DNA of 5,260 bases from a virus (taxonomy: Duplodnaviria; Heunggongvirae; Uroviricota; Caudoviricetes), in IMG/VR virus record IMGVR_UViG_2778261360_000016, positions 1 to 5,260 of that record. One strand, given 5' to 3'. Under the pieces are notes generated by a model. That model worked only from the letters and a program-made list of their open reading frames with translations. It did not search any database and had not been told where the DNA came from. Numbering within the stretch: position 1 is the first letter of the stretch; the number at the start of each line of letters is the position of its first letter. A program made the translations under genes and the position numbers. This document shows positions 1 through 5,260 of this stretch, piece by piece.

Positions 1-420
1 ATGGATGAATGCCGCCGCGAACCATTCAAAACCAGCGAAGGCAGAGAAATTACGGGGCCGTGGCAGTCGCATCCCAAACGGATGTTACGGCATAAAGCCA
101 TGATTCAGTGTGCCCGGCTGGCCTTCGGATTTGCGGGTATCTATGACAAGGATGAAGCCGAGCGCATTGTCGAAAATACCGCATACACTGCAGAACGTCA
201 GCCGGAACGCGACATCACTCCGGTTAACGATGAAACCATGCAGGAGATTAACACTCTGCTGATTGCCCTGGACAAAACATGGGATGACGACTTATTGCCG
301 CTCTGTTCCCAGATATTTCGCCGCGACATTCGCGCATCGTCGGAACTGACACAGGCCGAAGCAGTGAAAGCTCTTGGATTCCTGAAACAGAAAGCCTCTG
401 AACAGAAGGTGGCTGCATGA
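1..420 (+). CDS. bet: Bet (Red-beta) single-strand annealing recombinase, 3' portion only; the gene starts upstream of the window
   Basis: The frame is open from base 1 and the translation [11 protein letters not shown]...[22 protein letters not shown] matches the C-terminal part of phage lambda Bet as I recall it, so the ATG at 1 is an internal Met. The TGA at 418-420 overlaps the exo ATG at 417-419 (ATGA). Confidence 0.93.
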
Positions 421-1097
421 CACCGGACATTATCCTGCAGCGTACCGGGATCGACGTGAGAGCTGTCGAACAGGGGGATCATGCGTGGCACAAATTACGG
501 CTCGGCGTCATCACCGCTTCAGAAGTTCACAATGTGATAGCAAAACCCCGCTCCGGAAAGAAATGGCCTGACATGAAAATGTCCTACTTCCACACCCTGC
601 TTGCCGAGGTTTGCACCGGTGTGGCTCCGGAAGTTAACGCTAAGGCGCTGGCCTGGGGAAAACAGTACGAGAACGACGCCAGAGCCCTCTTTGAGTTCAC
701 TTCCGGCGTGAATGTTACTGAATCCCCGATCATCTATCGCGACGAAAGTATGCGCACCGCCTGCTCTCCCGATGGTTTATGCAGTGACGGCAATGGCCTT
801 GAGCTGAAATGCCCGTTTACCTCCCGGGATTTCATGAAGTTCCGGCTCGGTGGTTTCGAGGCCATAAAGTCGGCTTACATGGCCCAGGTGCAGTACAGCA
901 TGTGGGTGACGCGAAAAGATGCCTGGTACTTTTCCAACTATGACCCGCGTATGAAGCGTGAAGGCCTGCATTATGTCGTGGTTGAGCGGGATGAAAAGTA
1001 CATGGCGAGTTTTGACGAGATGGTGCCGGAGTTCATCGAAAAAATGGACGAGGCACTGGCTGAAATTGGTTTTGTATTTGGGGAGCAATGGCGATGA
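417..1097 (+). CDS. exo: Lambda-type 5'-3' exonuclease (Red-alpha, Exo), 226 aa
   Basis: The 226-aa translation [21 protein letters not shown]...[15 protein letters not shown] is near-identical to lambda exonuclease as I recall it. An AAGGTGG Shine-Dalgarno-like motif sits at 406-412, and the start overlaps the bet stop. Confidence 0.96.
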
Positions 1098-1276
1098 AGC
1101 ATCCTCACGATAATATCCGCGTAGGCACGATCACTTTCGTCTACTCCGTTACAAAGCGAGGCTGGGTATTTCCCGGCCTTTCTGTTATCCGAAATCCCCT
1201 GAATGCACAGCGGCTGGCTGAGGAGATAAATAATAAACGGGGGGCTGTATGCACAAAGCATCTCCCGTTGAGTTAA
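1094..1276 (+). CDS. Lambda orf60a-like small protein of the exo-xis region, 60 aa
   Basis: ATG at 1094 overlaps the exo stop (ATGA) and is preceded by GGGGAG at 1080-1085 with 8-nt spacing. From this start the product is exactly 60 aa ([11 protein letters not shown]...CTKHLPLS), matching the name and position of lambda orf60a. The upstream in-frame ATG at 1088 used by the ORF track lies only 2 nt from that motif. Confidence 0.75.
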
Positions 1277-1440
1277 GAACGAGTATCGAGATGGCACATA
1301 GCCTCGCTCAAATTGGAGTCAGGTTTGTGCCAATACCAGTAGAAACAGACGAAGAATTTCATACGTTAGCCGCATCCCTTTCACAAAAGCTGGAAATGAT
1401 GGTGGCGAAAGCAGAAGCAGATGAGAGAGACCCGGTATGA
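1249..1440 (+). CDS. Lambda orf63-like small protein of the exo-xis region, 63 aa
   Basis: The 63-aa ORF overlaps the orf60a 3' end by 28 nt and sits in the position of lambda orf63. A G-run at 1239-1244 precedes the ATG. An internal ATG at 1291 (MAHSLAQIGV...) is an alternative start. Confidence 0.72.
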   Translation: MHKASPVELRTSIEMAHSLAQIGVRFVPIPVETDEEFHTLAASLSQKLEMMVAKAEADERDPV

Positions 1441-1732
1441 CAACCACGGAATGCATTTTTCTGGCTGCGGGCTTCATATTCTGTGTGCTTATGCTTGCCG
1501 ACATGGGACTTGTTCAATGACACCTCAGCAAGAAAACGCCCTTCGCAGCATTGCCCGTCAGGCTAATTCTGAAATCAAAAAAGCCAGACAGCAGTTTCCG
1601 GATAAAAACGTCAATGACATTTGTCGTAGCGTACTGAAGAAGCACCGCGAAACGGTAACGCTGATGGGATTCACACCGACTCACTTAAGTCTGGCAATCG
1701 GCATGTTAAACGGCGTCTTTAAGGAACGGTGA
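1421..1732 (+). CDS. Lambda orf61-like protein, extended form (103 aa from ATG 1421; alternative start ATG 1517 gives 71 aa)
   Basis: The ORF starts 20 nt inside the orf63 3' end, as lambda orf61 does relative to orf63, and codon 62 is AAA rather than a stop. The C-terminal 71 aa (MTPQQENALRSIARQANSEIKK...) look like a genuine small basic protein. The N-terminal 32 aa are Cys/His-rich and no clear Shine-Dalgarno precedes 1421, so the true start is uncertain. Confidence 0.6.
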   Translation: MRETRYDNHGMHFSGCGLHILCAYACRHGTCSMTPQQENALRSIARQANSEIKKARQQFPDKNVNDICRSVLKKHRETVTLMGFTPTHLSLAIGMLNGVFKER

Positions 1733-1752
1733 ACATGAAAAGCAAAATCATC

Positions 1753-1775
1753 AGGGAGCTACAGGCTCCTTTTTT
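1753..1775 (+). terminator. Candidate rho-independent terminator or attenuator in the orf61-orf73 intergenic region
   Basis: A 5-bp stem GGAGC (1755-1759) / GCTCC (1765-1769) with a 5-nt loop, extendable by A-U and G-U pairs, is followed by T6 at 1770-1775. The stem is short, so this is probably only a partial terminator. Confidence 0.35.
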
Positions 1776-1830
1776 ATTATTCGCATTCACCCTCAAGCGT
1801 ATTAACCAACCATTCAGGGATTAATGGAAG

Positions 1831-2052
1831 ATGGCAGACATCATTGATTCAGCATCAGAAATTGAAGAATTACAGCGCAACACAGCAATAAAAATGCGCC
1901 GCCTGAACCACCAGGCTATATCTGCCACTCATTGTTGTGAGTGTGGCGATCCCATAGATGAGCGAAGACGCCTGGCCGTTCAGGGTTGTCGGACTTGTGC
2001 AAGTTGCCAGGAAGTTCTGGAGCTTATCAGTAAACAGAGAGGTTCGAAGTGA
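1831..2052 (+). CDS. DksA/TraR-family C4 zinc-finger protein (lambda orf73-like), 73 aa
   Basis: The 73-aa product carries the CxxC-(17)-CxxC motif CCECGDPIDERRRLAVQGCRTCASC typical of TraR/DksA C4 zinc fingers. Its length and position match lambda orf73. The stop overlaps the GTG start of the next gene (GTGA). Confidence 0.85.
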   Translation: MADIIDSASEIEELQRNTAIKMRRLNHQAISATHCCECGDPIDERRRLAVQGCRTCASCQEVLELISKQRGSK

Positions 2053-2420
2053 GCGAAATTAACTCTCAGGCACTGCGTGAAGCGGCAGAGCAGGCAATGC
2101 ATGACAACTGGGGATTTGACGCGGACCTTTTCCATGAGCTGGTAACACCATCGATTGTGCTGGCACTGCTGGATGAACGGGAAAGAAACCAGCAATACGT
2201 CAAACGCCGCGACAAGGAGAACGAGGATATTGCACTAACGGTAGGGAGGCTGCGCGTTGAGCTGGAAGGCAAACACAGGCGCATTACTGAGCTGACAATG
2301 TGGATTAAGCGACTGAGTTCCTCTCTCAAAAACGCAAAACCAGACAGCAAGTTGCCGGATGACGCAATGATCTGGCTAAATAATGAAGGGCTTACCAGTA
2401 TAGAGGATATTTTACGATGA
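2049..2420 (+). CDS. Ea22-like (ead/Ea22 family) N-terminal-domain protein, 123 aa, GTG start
   Basis: GTG at 2049 is preceded by GAGG at 2039-2042 with 6-nt spacing. The N-terminus MSEINSQALREAAEQAMHDNWGFDADLFHELVTPSIVLALLDERERNQQY resembles the conserved N-terminal region of lambda Ea22-family proteins as I recall it. The central region is charged and looks coiled-coil-like. Confidence 0.7.
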   Translation: MSEINSQALREAAEQAMHDNWGFDADLFHELVTPSIVLALLDERERNQQYVKRRDKENEDIALTVGRLRVELEGKHRRITELTMWIKRLSSSLKNAKPDSKLPDDAMIWLNNEGLTSIEDILR

Positions 2421-3064
2421 GCACTTTTACCATGGAATGGCTACAAAATACGATTACCAGTATTGAGTCAGCACGAGATGAAATGCCATTCGGACTCGAT
2501 AACGATCAAGCACACATGCTTACAGCATTTAAAATCGCTCTCGCCTCACTGGAACGCGAGCGGGTTCGCCACGAGCATGCCAAATGGTCTGACTCCACAT
2601 TTGGCTGCGTTGGCCCCATTGGTCCACTGAAACACCTCTCAAAAGAGGCTCTGGAAGCCGCAGCCGAACCTGACGATCTCAGCGAGTGGGCTGATATGCA
2701 GTTCCTGTTGTGGGATGCACAGCGCCGTGCCGGTATCAGTGATGCTGAAATTACCGCTGCTATGGAAAATAAATTGAAGATCAACATGGAGCGTCAGTGG
2801 CCTGAACCAAAAGATGGTGAGCCTCGTTTGCACATTAAAGAACCCGGCAACTCTCCGGTAACTCCGGATGGTTGGATAAGCTGTAGTGAGCTAATGCCAG
2901 ATGATGGTCAGCACGTAATTATTTTATGTGATGGCGCATTCGTTCTTTATGCGCAATATCGAGACGGAGAGTTTTTCGATATTGTCCGCAATGGTGATGA
3001 ATTTTTCGAAACACAGAGTCGCAATGTAACCGACTGGATGCAACTACCAGAACCTCCTCTTTGA
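2417..3064 (+). CDS. Two-domain prophage protein: MazG-like nucleotide pyrophosphohydrolase-type N-terminal domain (DUF550-like) plus C-terminal DUF551-like domain, 215 aa
   Basis: ATG at 2417 overlaps the upstream stop (ATGA). The N-terminal half has a MazG-like acidic helix pattern (EALEAAAEPDDLSEWADMQFLLWDAQRRAGISDAEI). The C-terminal WISCSELMPDDGQHVIILCDG...YAQYRDGEFF...WMQLPEPP matches the DUF551 signature common in enterobacterial prophage proteins. Domain names are from memory, not a search. Confidence 0.78.
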   Translation: MSTFTMEWLQNTITSIESARDEMPFGLDNDQAHMLTAFKIALASLERERVRHEHAKWSDSTFGCVGPIGPLKHLSKEALEAAAEPDDLSEWADMQFLLWDAQRRAGISDAEITAAMENKLKINMERQWPEPKDGEPRLHIKEPGNSPVTPDGWISCSELMPDDGQHVIILCDGAFVLYAQYRDGEFFDIVRNGDEFFETQSRNVTDWMQLPEPPL

Positions 3065-3160
3065 TAGCTAAGCTTATACATATCTTTTACATCAGCAATC
3101 TATTGTTAATCTCCAATCAATGTTACGTTGTCATCTCTCTCATGCTTTGGAGGTAGTGAT

Positions 3161-3340
3161 ATGTCTTGTCCAAAATGCGGTTCTGGAAATATTGCAAAAG
3201 AAAAAACAATGCGTGGATGGTCTGATGATTATGTGTGCTGCGATTGCGGATACAACGACTCTAAAGACGTATTTGGAGAGCGTGGTAAAAACGATTTTGT
3301 CAAAATTAATAAAGAACGCGAAGGCAACGAAAAAAGCTAA
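3161..3340 (+). CDS. Small zinc-ribbon protein, 59 aa (CPKCG...CCDCG), in an AT-rich island
   Basis: ATG at 3161 is preceded by GGAGG at 3149-3153 with 7-nt spacing. Two Cys pairs (CPKC and CCDC) are spaced like a zinc ribbon, and the C-terminus is Lys/Glu-rich. The ORF-track start at 3128 is a TTG with no ribosome-binding site, so the ATG is preferred. Confidence 0.55.
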   Translation: MSCPKCGSGNIAKEKTMRGWSDDYVCCDCGYNDSKDVFGERGKNDFVKINKEREGNEKS

Positions 3341-3405
3341 TTTATTTATTCATATATGAAAACAATGTAACCAATATTCGAATTGAAGAACTGAAAGAAC
3401 ACCAA

Positions 3406-3427
3406 GCCGCCTGATGGCGGTTTTTTT
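3406..3427 (+). terminator. Rho-independent terminator candidate downstream of the zinc-ribbon gene
   Basis: A GC-rich stem CCGCC (3407-3411) / GGCGG (3416-3420) with loop TGAT is followed by T7 at 3421-3427. The T-run is on the + strand, so it is oriented for + strand transcription. Confidence 0.6.
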
Positions 3428-3441
3428 ATTGGAGACAAGAA

Positions 3442-3786
3442 ATGTCAGATTTGGCTATGAAGGTTTTGAAATGGCAATCGACTGGCGATGTTGGCATCAG
3501 TAGCGCAACTCTTGCCTCAATCGCATGTGGACTGAAAAAGAATATCTATGGTCATCACTTCGGCGCTCCCCATGACGCAGCCGATTTCAGACGATGCGTT
3601 GCACTTGTTGAGCAGATTCCAGAAATCAGAGATTCATTCAACAAGGTTGCAAAGCGCGTTCCGGCATTCAAAGGAATCCTCAACGAATGGGATTCTCTCG
3701 TTGCTCTGTTGAAGTCTGAAATGAAGATACACGGAAACAAAGCACCAGAGACTTACAGAAGAATTAGCGAGTTACGCAAGGACTAA
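3442..3786 (+). CDS. Hypothetical protein, 114 aa, function unknown, in the lower-GC accessory region between the ea genes and xis
   Basis: The ATG at 3442 is preceded by GGAGA at 3431-3435 with 6-nt spacing and follows the terminator T-run within 15 nt. The ORF is clean, with a soluble, helical-looking composition. I do not recognise the sequence. Confidence 0.65.
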   Translation: MSDLAMKVLKWQSTGDVGISSATLASIACGLKKNIYGHHFGAPHDAADFRRCVALVEQIPEIRDSFNKVAKRVPAFKGILNEWDSLVALLKSEMKIHGNKAPETYRRISELRKD

Positions 3787-3875
3787 CCACAGCCTCACAC
3801 TCAATGAGGCCTGCCAGCTTCTCAAGATATCCAGACCTACAGCAATCATGTCAATCCAATAAATGGAGACTCCAA

Positions 3876-4223
3876 GTGGAAGAAGAAATCTTCACTCGTG
3901 AAGAGGCAGCATCGTATCTGAAGGTAGACAAAGGCACTATCACGCAGTGGATACGAAGTGGACGACTTCAGGCCGCAAAGATAAATCCAGATAAACCTAA
4001 AAGCCCATATCGCATTTGCAAGTCAGACTGCATTGCGGCGCTTAAGTCTGTGAGACACAATAGCGCGGTGAATGCGGTTGATGTGCAGGAGGTTAAAGCA
4101 TGTCAATCAAACTGCGCGGTGGCACATGGCACTGCGATTTCGTCGCGCCAGATGGATCAAGAGTTAGACGCTCTCTTGAAACATCGGACAAAAGGCAAGC
4201 GCAAGAACTTCACGATCGTCTGA
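3876..4223 (+). CDS. xis: Excisionase (Xis), HTH excisionase-family DNA-binding protein, probably P22-type, about 115 aa from GTG 3876
   Basis: The motif EEEIFTREEAASYLKVDKGTITQWIRSGRLQAAKI is typical of excisionase/MerR-like helix-turn-helix domains, and the gene lies immediately upstream of int. GTG at 3876 has GGAG at 3865-3868 with 7-nt spacing, whereas the in-frame ATG at 3804 (139 aa) has no ribosome-binding site. The 3' end overlaps int by 124 nt. Confidence 0.7.
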   Translation: MEEEIFTREEAASYLKVDKGTITQWIRSGRLQAAKINPDKPKSPYRICKSDCIAALKSVRHNSAVNAVDVQEVKACQSNCAVAHGTAISSRQMDQELDALLKHRTKGKRKNFTIV

Positions 4224-5260
4224 AAGCAGAGGCGTGGAGAGTAAAAAATCTCGGGGAATCGCCGAAAAAGCTATTCAAGGAAGCCTGCATACGGTGGCTG
4301 CGTGAGAAATCGGATAAGAAGTCCATTGATGATGACAAGAGCATTATATCGTTCTGGATGTTGCACTTCAGAGAAACCATTCTCTCTGACATAACAACAG
4401 AAAAAATAATGGAGGCGGTAGACGGGATGGAAAACCGCCGCCATCGCCTGAACTGGGAGATGAGCCGGGACAGGTGTTTGCGGCTTGGCAAGCCAGTGCC
4501 GGAGTATAAACCAAAGCTGGCAAGCAAAGGAACGAAGACGCGGCATCTGGCAATACTTCGCGCTATTCTCAATATGGCTGTTGAATGGGGATGGCTTGAC
4601 AGGGCGCCCAAAATATCAACACCACGCGTTAAGAATGGACGCATTAGATGGCTTACAGAAGAGGAATCGAAGCGCCTGTTTGCAGAAATAGCTCCTCATT
4701 TCTTCCCTGTTGTCATGTTTGCAATCACGACAGGCCTTCGCCGTTCCAACGTTACAGACCTTGAGTGGTCACAGGTCGATCTGGATAAGAAAATGGCATG
4801 GATGCCCCCTGATGAAACAAAAGCTGGCAATGCGATCGGAGTTCCTCTTAACGAAACCGCATGCCAGATATTAAGAAAACAGCAGGGACTCCATAAGAGA
4901 TGGGTATTTGTCCACACCAAACCTGCCTACCGAAGCGACGGAACAAAAACAGCAGCGGTAAGGAAGATGAGAACCGACAGCAACAAGGCATGGAAGGGAG
5001 CGTTAAAGCGGGCAGGCATTAGCAACTTCCGCTTCCATGACCTGAGGCATACCTGGGCAAGCTGGCTGGTTCAGTCCGGTGTCTCTCTTCTTGCACTTAA
5101 AGAGATGGGAGGATGGGAAACTCTCGAAATGGTTCAAAGATACGCCCACCTTTCAGCCGGGCATCTCACTGAGCACGCGAGCAAAATCGATGCGATTATA
5201 AATCGCAATGGCACAAATACGGCACAAGAGGAAAACGTGGTTTACTTAAATGTGAGATAA
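4100..5260 (+). CDS. int: Tyrosine-recombinase phage integrase (P22/Sf6-type Int), 386 aa
   Basis: AGGAGG at 4087-4092 lies 7 nt before the ATG at 4100. Catalytic signatures are present: TGLRRSN (Arg box), HDLRHTWASWLVQSG (H-x-x-R), GGWETLEMVQRYAHL (Tyr nucleophile). The N-terminus MSIKLRGGTWHCDFVAPDG...KRQAQELHDRLKAEAWRV resembles P22 Int as I recall it. The TAA at 5258-5260 is the last codon of the window. Confidence 0.95.
   Translation: MSIKLRGGTWHCDFVAPDGSRVRRSLETSDKRQAQELHDRLKAEAWRVKNLGESPKKLFKEACIRWLREKSDKKSIDDDKSIISFWMLHFRETILSDITTEKIMEAVDGMENRRHRLNWEMSRDRCLRLGKPVPEYKPKLASKGTKTRHLAILRAILNMAVEWGWLDRAPKISTPRVKNGRIRWLTEEESKRLFAEIAPHFFPVVMFAITTGLRRSNVTDLEWSQVDLDKKMAWMPPDETKAGNAIGVPLNETACQILRKQQGLHKRWVFVHTKPAYRSDGTKTAAVRKMRTDSNKAWKGALKRAGISNFRFHDLRHTWASWLVQSGVSLLALKEMGGWETLEMVQRYAHLSAGHLTEHASKIDAIINRNGTNTAQEENVVYLNVR

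Follow-up and report, generated by a model that had tools for sequence, protein, structure and literature searches.

Two overlapping small genes predicted at the orf61 locus of a lambdoid pL operon

The DNA analysed here, positions 1 to 5,260 of the Caudoviricetes record IMGVR_UViG_2778261360_000016 (5,260 nucleotides (nt); "the window"), represents a lambdoid pL early operon, given in the direction of transcription. Its segment 1421-1732 is the locus at which phage lambda carries the gene orf61. Comparison of the reading frames suggests that this segment contains two separate genes of the pL early operon, coding for a hydrophobic peptide of 27 amino acids (aa) and a protein of 71 aa, and not one gene for 103 aa, a reading to which we assign a probability of about 0.72. 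Ribosomes would end orf63 at the TGA at 1438-1440, restart at the overlapping ATG at 1437 and make the 27-residue peptide; they would then end at the TGA at 1518-1520 and restart at the ATG at 1517 to make the 71-residue product, the conserved protein usually called Orf61 (or "ZapA") in Shiga toxin (Stx) and other lambdoid phages. The analysis shows where the genes begin and end, which frames are constrained, how the lambda copy is frameshifted and how the genes are distributed; that the peptide is translated and lies in the membrane, that output of the 71-aa protein depends on coupling, and any function are inferences.

Constraint and conservation at the orf61 locus

The open reading frames (ORFs) in question had been pointed out in a sequence-only reading of the window, and the ORF list confirms them at 1421-1732 (103 aa), 1437-1520 (27 aa) and 1517-1732 (71 aa), together with the double ATGA overlap; the lengths given for the orf60a-like gene (60 aa from ATG 1094) and the orf63-like gene (63 aa, 1249-1440) are correct as well. 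That reading had left the choice between one long and two short genes open and had named conservation confined to the 1421 frame as the outcome that would remove the small-peptide model. The opposite was found, and the comparative evidence favours the model of a 27-aa and a 71-aa ORF. We collected about 290 related loci, 257 of which hold the 27-aa region, counted substitutions on 89 haplotypes and calculated a crude ratio of non-synonymous to synonymous substitution rates (dN/dS). Between 1452 and 1516 the frame of the 27-aa ORF contains 10 synonymous and 8 non-synonymous changes (dN/dS 0.23, p=0.0024), and the same interval read in the 1421/1451 frame contains 4 and 14 (dN/dS 1.08, p=0.64). 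Further downstream, between 1520 and 1729, constraint lies in the frame shared by the ATGs at 1421 and 1517, with 21 synonymous and 21 non-synonymous changes (dN/dS 0.28, p=6e-5). All polymorphisms of segment 1437-1517 that occur in at least five haplotypes are synonymous in the 27-aa frame, the non-synonymous ones being nearly all singletons. A neighbouring 31-aa ORF served as negative control and gave no frame signal by the identical method (9 synonymous and 18 non-synonymous changes, with equal counts in the other frames).

The 71-aa ORF is 97-99% identical to hundreds of prophage copies and matches phrog_303 with E=1.3e-35, residues 1-71 aligning with profile positions 23-93. Its start codon is ATG, replaced by GTG in 12 of the 89 haplotypes. 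Homologues from other genera were found by tblastn, which returned 49 phage records below 60% identity in Klebsiella, Vibrio, Yersinia and Enterobacter phages, and by an exhaustive HMMER search, which added 19 more distant representatives of 68-78 aa aligned from residues 1-6; a word-indexed protein search had made the family look confined to E. coli. The distant homologues share 31-48% identity with the 71-aa protein. In the Klebsiella phages GZ7 and Mulock the homologue has 72 aa and aligns from Met1 to the C-terminal ...NG..KER, and a Vibrio phage homologue of 66 aa aligns from Met1, too. The gene overlaps the upstream stop codon by 4 nt in both Klebsiella phages (that of an adenine methylase in Mulock and of a hypothetical protein in GZ7), with GGAGG preceding the start in Mulock, and a TraR/DksA gene lies 3' of it as in the window, directly adjacent in GZ7 and one small gene further in Mulock. 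Neither an N-terminal extension nor the 27-aa ORF was found in GZ7, Mulock or the tblastn and HMMER sets. The ATG at 1517 is thus in all probability the true start of the conserved gene, and the Prokaryotic Genome Annotation Pipeline (PGAP) already uses the 71-aa model. Both the Orf61 of Stx phages (Phi24B vb_24B_7c, 933W; 93 aa) and the 71-aa "cell division protein ZapA" of PGAP are 97-99% identical to the 71-aa ORF; the 93-aa form differs by 22 additional N-terminal residues, which our comparison does not support. AlphaFold2 models the 71-aa product, which would be a soluble protein, as three helices (residues 3-26, 32-49 and 54-64) with a predicted local distance difference test score of 88.

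The 27-aa ORF is intact in 257 of 257 loci, although three of these end one residue earlier (26 aa, Q27 changed to a stop), and the identical peptide is encoded in 230 of them over 30 DNA haplotypes. We therefore regard it as likely that the peptide is a real, constrained gene. Its hydrophobic core (residues 6-22, 17 residues, mean Kyte-Doolittle value 2.44) is flanked by E5 and D22 and long enough to span a membrane, and only 0.6% of the 27-aa six-frame pieces of the window match its hydrophobicity. The product is most likely a small inner-membrane protein with a predicted single helix. Enterobacteria and their phages have small membrane proteins (25-50 aa) with a single helix, for example KdpF, AcrZ and MgtS. 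The peptide resembles them in length, in having one hydrophobic helix between charged residues and in lying in an operon with an overlapping stop and start; it differs in that it is predicted from sequence alone and has no sequence similarity to any named family (best matches MtrF, E=0.034, and phrog_21538, E=0.68). Protein databases hold it as "hypothetical protein" on 981 contigs, and it carries no annotation in the records of lambda, BP-4795, ev243, mEp332, HK630, PhiR11_1 and phage 21. The "putative membrane protein" of phage 21 proved not to be the peptide, as this label sits on the 71-aa ORF. A literature search with the peptide sequence and with exo-xis plus transmembrane returned nothing relevant.

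The two genes would be joined to each other and to orf63 by ATGA overlaps at 1437-1440 (orf63 TGA and peptide ATG) and 1517-1520 (peptide TGA and ATG of the 71-aa gene). The sequence-only reading had called this double overlap striking; it is rather the usual junction style of the operon, in which further 4-nt overlaps occur at bet/exo (417), exo/orf60a (1094), 71-aa/31-aa ORF (GTGA, 1729), orf73/ea22 (GTGA, 2049) and 2417 (ATGA). Among the relatives the ATGA overlap is kept, also in a group of prophages with a different upstream gene (type B), and variants read GTGA (12 of 89 haplotypes) or TAATGA. Type-B prophages carry a 185-aa gene in place of orf63, and homology with the window begins exactly at the peptide ATG; GGGAGG precedes this ATG, and the TGA of the new upstream gene overlaps it, again as ATGA. 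In a second group (type C) a 250-aa gene replaces both orf63 and the peptide gene, and the 71-aa gene follows 7 nt later with its own GAGG and with its first seven codons diverged (MTIEHNN...). These exchanges are classic lambdoid mosaicism with joints at gene starts; examples of the replacing modules are positions 867-1424 of locus L009 (185-aa gene) and 741-1493 of locus L092 (250-aa gene). The 185-aa gene is probably an adenine methyltransferase because methylases hold that position in Klebsiella phages.

Objections and alternative readings

Several observations weigh against the two-gene reading. As the loci are closely related (at least 90% identity), the substitution counts are small, and the 27-aa peptide carries 8 non-synonymous singletons. 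The peptide gene is confined to lambdoid and Stx phages of Escherichia (175 records, all at least 90% identical), and its absence beside the 71-aa gene in other genera indicates that the latter does not need the peptide. Ribosome profiling of lambda, to the extent that it is related in PMC8614690, named additional peptides in this block, 7 and 31 aa long, and none of 27 aa. Finally, two other frames compete for the same DNA: the frame 1451-1732, coding for 93 aa, is open in every locus examined, and a minus-strand ORF (1319-1504, 61 aa) has its third positions in register with the peptide frame and appears partly constrained (6 synonymous and 7 non-synonymous changes at 1452-1501).

The 27-aa ORF might be a mere relay that passes ribosomes from orf63 to a weakly initiating 71-aa gene, its product being functionless. 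The ATGA overlaps on both sides would suit such a role. So would the weak Shine-Dalgarno pairing before 1517 (-3.9 kcal/mol): where the peptide gene is missing, homologues have GGAGG or GAGG instead, a difference consistent with coupling. A pure relay, however, would leave the amino acids unconstrained, which disagrees with the uniformity of the peptide and its dN/dS of ~0.23, and the product is a clean hydrophobic helix with charged flanks. We thus consider a functionless relay improbable, albeit less so than the other alternatives.

A second possibility is that the locus encodes a single long protein, starting at 1451 (93 aa) or 1421 (103 aa), and that the 27-aa ORF is a chance out-of-frame ORF. 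The open 93-aa frame speaks for it, phrog_303 and many database entries use the 93-aa form, and the published modelling of Orf61 was done with 93 aa (PMC8614690). The published models, however, disagree among themselves on residues 1-23 (PMC8614690), and the frame of the putative extension evolves with a dN/dS of ~1.1 at 1452-1516. Neither upstream ATG behaves as a conserved start. An intact ORF from ATG 1421, whose Shine-Dalgarno pairing is poorly placed, exists in only about 72 of the 257 loci; in the others it runs into a TGA at codon 10 (about 114 loci; 1448 G>T, a change that is synonymous in the 27-aa frame), the ATG is replaced by ACG (about 42) or the upstream DNA is unrelated (about 29). 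The ATG at 1451 lacks a usable Shine-Dalgarno sequence upstream and is probably not a real start. As type-C loci and all distant homologues do without the extension as well, a single long protein is very unlikely, and the 22-32 N-terminal residues read from the ATGs at 1421 and 1451 are best explained as an out-of-frame reading of the 27-aa peptide gene.

The codon pattern at 1440-1504 might also be caused by a gene on the minus strand instead of the 27-aa ORF. The minus-strand ORF looks partly constrained because its wobble positions are shared with the peptide frame, and there is one minus-strand promoter-like match (1805-1776), yet the number of such matches equals the chance expectation. 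Such a gene would be transcribed against the pL operon, with an out-of-phase overlap with orf63; 9 loci have ATA in place of its start codon, and in type-B loci its length falls from 61 to 44 codons. Moreover, the synonymous bias runs on past its start (1502-1517), and three changes that are synonymous in the peptide frame would be M>I in the antisense frame. We regard an antisense origin of the pattern as a slim chance.

The orf61 copy of lambda

The sequence-only reading had asked whether orf61 of the lambda reference might likewise have about 103 aa. It does not, having 61 aa in NC_001416 (30839..31024). Lambda orf61 (NP_040613, lambdap37; phrog_26061) lies at the same locus and uses the same upstream ATG (window 1421 corresponds to lambda 31024), the DNA of the region is 97% identical, both the 103-aa ORF and lambda orf61 overlap orf63 by 20 nt, and the first 56 residues of the 103-aa ORF match phrog_26061. 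The difference lies in a run of adenines, which has seven residues in lambda (A7, ATCAAAAAAAGC) and six in the window, BP-4795 and ev243 (A6, ATCAAAAAAGC), as revealed by the alignment. The lambda protein consequently departs after ...SEIKK into SQTAVSG* and comprises 61 codons ending in ...SEIKKSQTAVSG*, whereas the window continues ...SEIKKARQQFPDKN... and stays open to 1732. Codon 62 of the window is indeed AAA, as had been noted, but the proposed single substitution to TAA does not account for the lambda stop, since this TAA corresponds to window 1603-1605 and is out of frame here. Of the two options offered, a truncated lambda or a read-through window, lambda does turn out to be the aberrant, truncated copy, though the cause is a +1 frameshift instead of a nonsense mutation. 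Nor does the 103-aa ORF represent the ancestral gene, and neither the 61-aa nor the 103-aa reading fits the constrained frames. The 61-aa orf61 of lambda is best explained as an artefact in which an out-of-frame reading of the peptide gene, the opening 22 codons of the 71-aa gene and a tail shifted by the extra A are joined.

The truncation of orf61 in lambda is real and already known from the literature and from RefSeq annotation: a review from 2021 notes that Orf61 of lambda "appears to be truncated" as compared to Phi24B and 933W (PMC8614690), and RefSeq PGAP annotates the copy of a lambda prophage as a "frameshifted" pseudogene starting at the ATG equivalent to window 1517. In IMG/VR, 13 contigs have the A7 run, whereas loci that code for an intact (A6-type) relative number at least 560; of the 13, nine match lambda fully or almost fully and four are about 97% identical to it. 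The locus is present in 3204 of 5426 complete E. coli genomes, and a 91-mer with the lambda A7 matches 87 of 3213 complete E. coli records exactly, the 30 listed belonging for the most part to laboratory lysogens and DE3 strains. At least three haplotype backgrounds carry A7 (lambda and HK630; L165, L175 and L176; L172), which fits a recurrent slippage mutation in a homopolymer. A comparable case is the stf frameshift of lambda PaPa (Hendrix and Duda 1992, as cited in PMC6213356), where a single-base frameshift of the reference lambda likewise splits or truncates a gene that is intact in relatives. In contrast to stf, the A7 allele is also found in HK630 and a few non-lambda prophages and is therefore not necessarily a laboratory event.

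Programmed slippage at A7, ribosomal or transcriptional, by which some full-length 71-aa protein would still be made, is extremely unlikely, for although A7 is a homopolymer that recurs on several backgrounds and in the natural isolate HK630, such slippage needs a +1 shift or the loss of one A in the transcript, A7 is rare and mostly represented by lambda itself, the two-frame layout and the slippery run are not conserved in relatives, in one A7 lineage the peptide gene has a stop too, and the overall pattern is that of recurrent loss of function at a mutable run.

The lineage just mentioned (L165, L175 and L176, non-lambda contigs of IMG/VR) combines the A7 frameshift of the 71-aa gene with a 27-aa ORF in which Q27 is changed to a stop (CAA>TAA at 1515), so that the two small genes are altered at once. 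Several database "homologues" of the 71-aa protein (P0016, P0021, P0032, P0064 and P0068) contain an internal frameshift and return to frame around the A-run, reflecting either compensated indels or homopolymer errors of long-read assemblies. A scan of species-representative genomes yielded 21 loci only, mostly lambda contamination, and added no diversity. Lambda-like loci with a 214-nt A7-type match (L305-L318) were located in assemblies labelled Shewanella, Pseudomonas, Bradyrhizobium, Oceanobacillus, Kitasatospora and others; with several of them about 48.4-48.5 kb long and at low coverage, they look like contamination of public genomes by lambda control DNA.

Neighbouring genes, protein names and published phenotypes

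The features of the region are collected in Table 1. About 180 phage records, among them lambda, HK630, BP-4795 and many Stx phages, are 97-98% identical to the window at 1080-1840, and one IMG/VR contig is identical to it across 1241-1840. The bases at 1466 and 1811 are nearly private to the window and this contig: T at 1466 is synonymous in the 27-aa peptide frame and S>C in the 1421 frame, and C at 1811 would be Q>P in the 31-aa ORF. This ORF (MNMKSKIIRELQAPFLLFAFTLKRINQPFRD, 1729-1824) starts with GTG (29 aa if read from the ATG at 1735), overlaps the stop of the 71-aa gene by GTGA, is annotated in some phage records and contains the terminator-like hairpin 1753-1771. A terminator t2 has been predicted between orf61 and orf73 (PMC4195576). 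Another terminator-like hairpin with a T-rich tail lies inside orf60a (1158-1180, plus strand) and may be due to chance, as three terminator-like matches were obtained in the scanned kilobase as compared to 1.2 expected. An Rfam search of the window gave no match. The lambda RefSeq record (NC_001416, 29500-32900) has no coding sequence for orf73 between ea22 and orf61. The orf73 gene, a TraR/DksA homologue, is well documented in the literature.

Table 1. Features at and around the orf61 locus of the window
Feature	Position	Strand	Basis or remark
bet, C-terminal part	up to 419	+	ORF list
exo	417-1097	+	ORF list
orf60a (DUF1317), 60 aa	1094-1276	+	start ATG 1094
orf63 (DUF1382), 63 aa	1249-1440	+	PF07131, E=3e-31; ORF list; lambda annotation
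Start of lambda "orf61" and of the 103-aa ORF	1421-1423	+	not a conserved start
27-aa ORF, MTTTECIFLAAGFIFCVLMLADMGLVQ	1437-1520	+	ATG overlaps orf63 TGA; TGA overlaps ATG 1517
Start of the 93-aa "Orf61" of Stx phages (BP-4795 ORF9; Phi24B vb_24B_7c)	1451-1453	+	
71-aa gene, conserved "orf61" (phrog_303)	1517-1732	+	ATG overlaps stop of the 27-aa ORF
A6 run	1577-1582	+	A7 in lambda, a +1 frameshift truncating its copy
TAA ending lambda orf61	1603-1605	+	out of frame in the window
Intrinsic-terminator-like hairpin and T-run	1753-1781 (hairpin 1753-1771)	+	3' of the 71-aa gene; marks the end of the gene block
TraR/DksA zinc-finger gene (lambda orf73)	1831-2052	+	3' of the region in question
ea22-like gene, then integrase-like ORF farther downstream	3' of orf73		

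The names and folds tried for the 71-aa protein gained no clear support. ZapA (PF05164) scored 15.7 bits as compared to a gathering score of 23.8 (E=0.019) and matched only 2 of 22 family members; NCBIfam gave no match for it, and fold searches lent it no support. A homeodomain-like DNA binder with a three-helix fold has been proposed for Orf61 (PMC8614690), an assignment that gained no clear support for the 71-aa protein. Weak ankyrin/DARPin matches at residues 42-65 disappeared with the family profile, and the multi-repeat matches of the exhaustive search were WD40 and other repeat proteins and spurious; an ankyrin-like reading was rejected. PMC9239242 also uses the name "orf61", for a Vibrio phage gene unrelated to this one.

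The lysis-lysogeny behaviour of lambda and Stx phages depends in part on the exo-xis block; Orf61 itself has been studied by deletion, over-expression and modelling, as a protein of 61 or 93 aa. Deletion of the region or the orf61 locus has been linked to altered, slower or less efficient lytic development (PMC6213356, PMC4699033). The primers printed in PMC4699033 place the lambda delta-orf61 deletion at about window 1474-1556, so that it removes the last 15 codons of the peptide (13-27) together with the start and the first 13 codons of the 71-aa ORF. As both genes are hit, the reported phenotypes are not assignable to either product. If the two-gene reading is true, the 71-aa gene is already broken in lambda, and any delta-orf61 phenotype of lambda points to the peptide, a 29-aa stub or polarity. 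The ribosome-profiling "confirmation" of lambda orf61, as cited in PMC8614690, would equally fit translation of the 27-aa ORF and the 29-aa stub. A tentative and rather doubtful extension of this argument is that a conserved 27-residue membrane micro-protein, lacking from the annotation of the lambda reference, would be made by lambda and by lambdoid prophages of E. coli (about 3200 of 5426 complete genomes) and would underlie the "orf61" phenotypes of lambda.

The lambda reference itself still holds the mis-framed ORF, and published "orf61" constructs and knock-outs need re-reading; if the locus does consist of two genes, constructs of the Orf61 of Stx phages should begin at Met23 of the 93-aa form. 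The result is not a new kind of system; it is a modest, useful re-annotation, and the peptide is a new candidate small protein of a phage that has been studied intensively.

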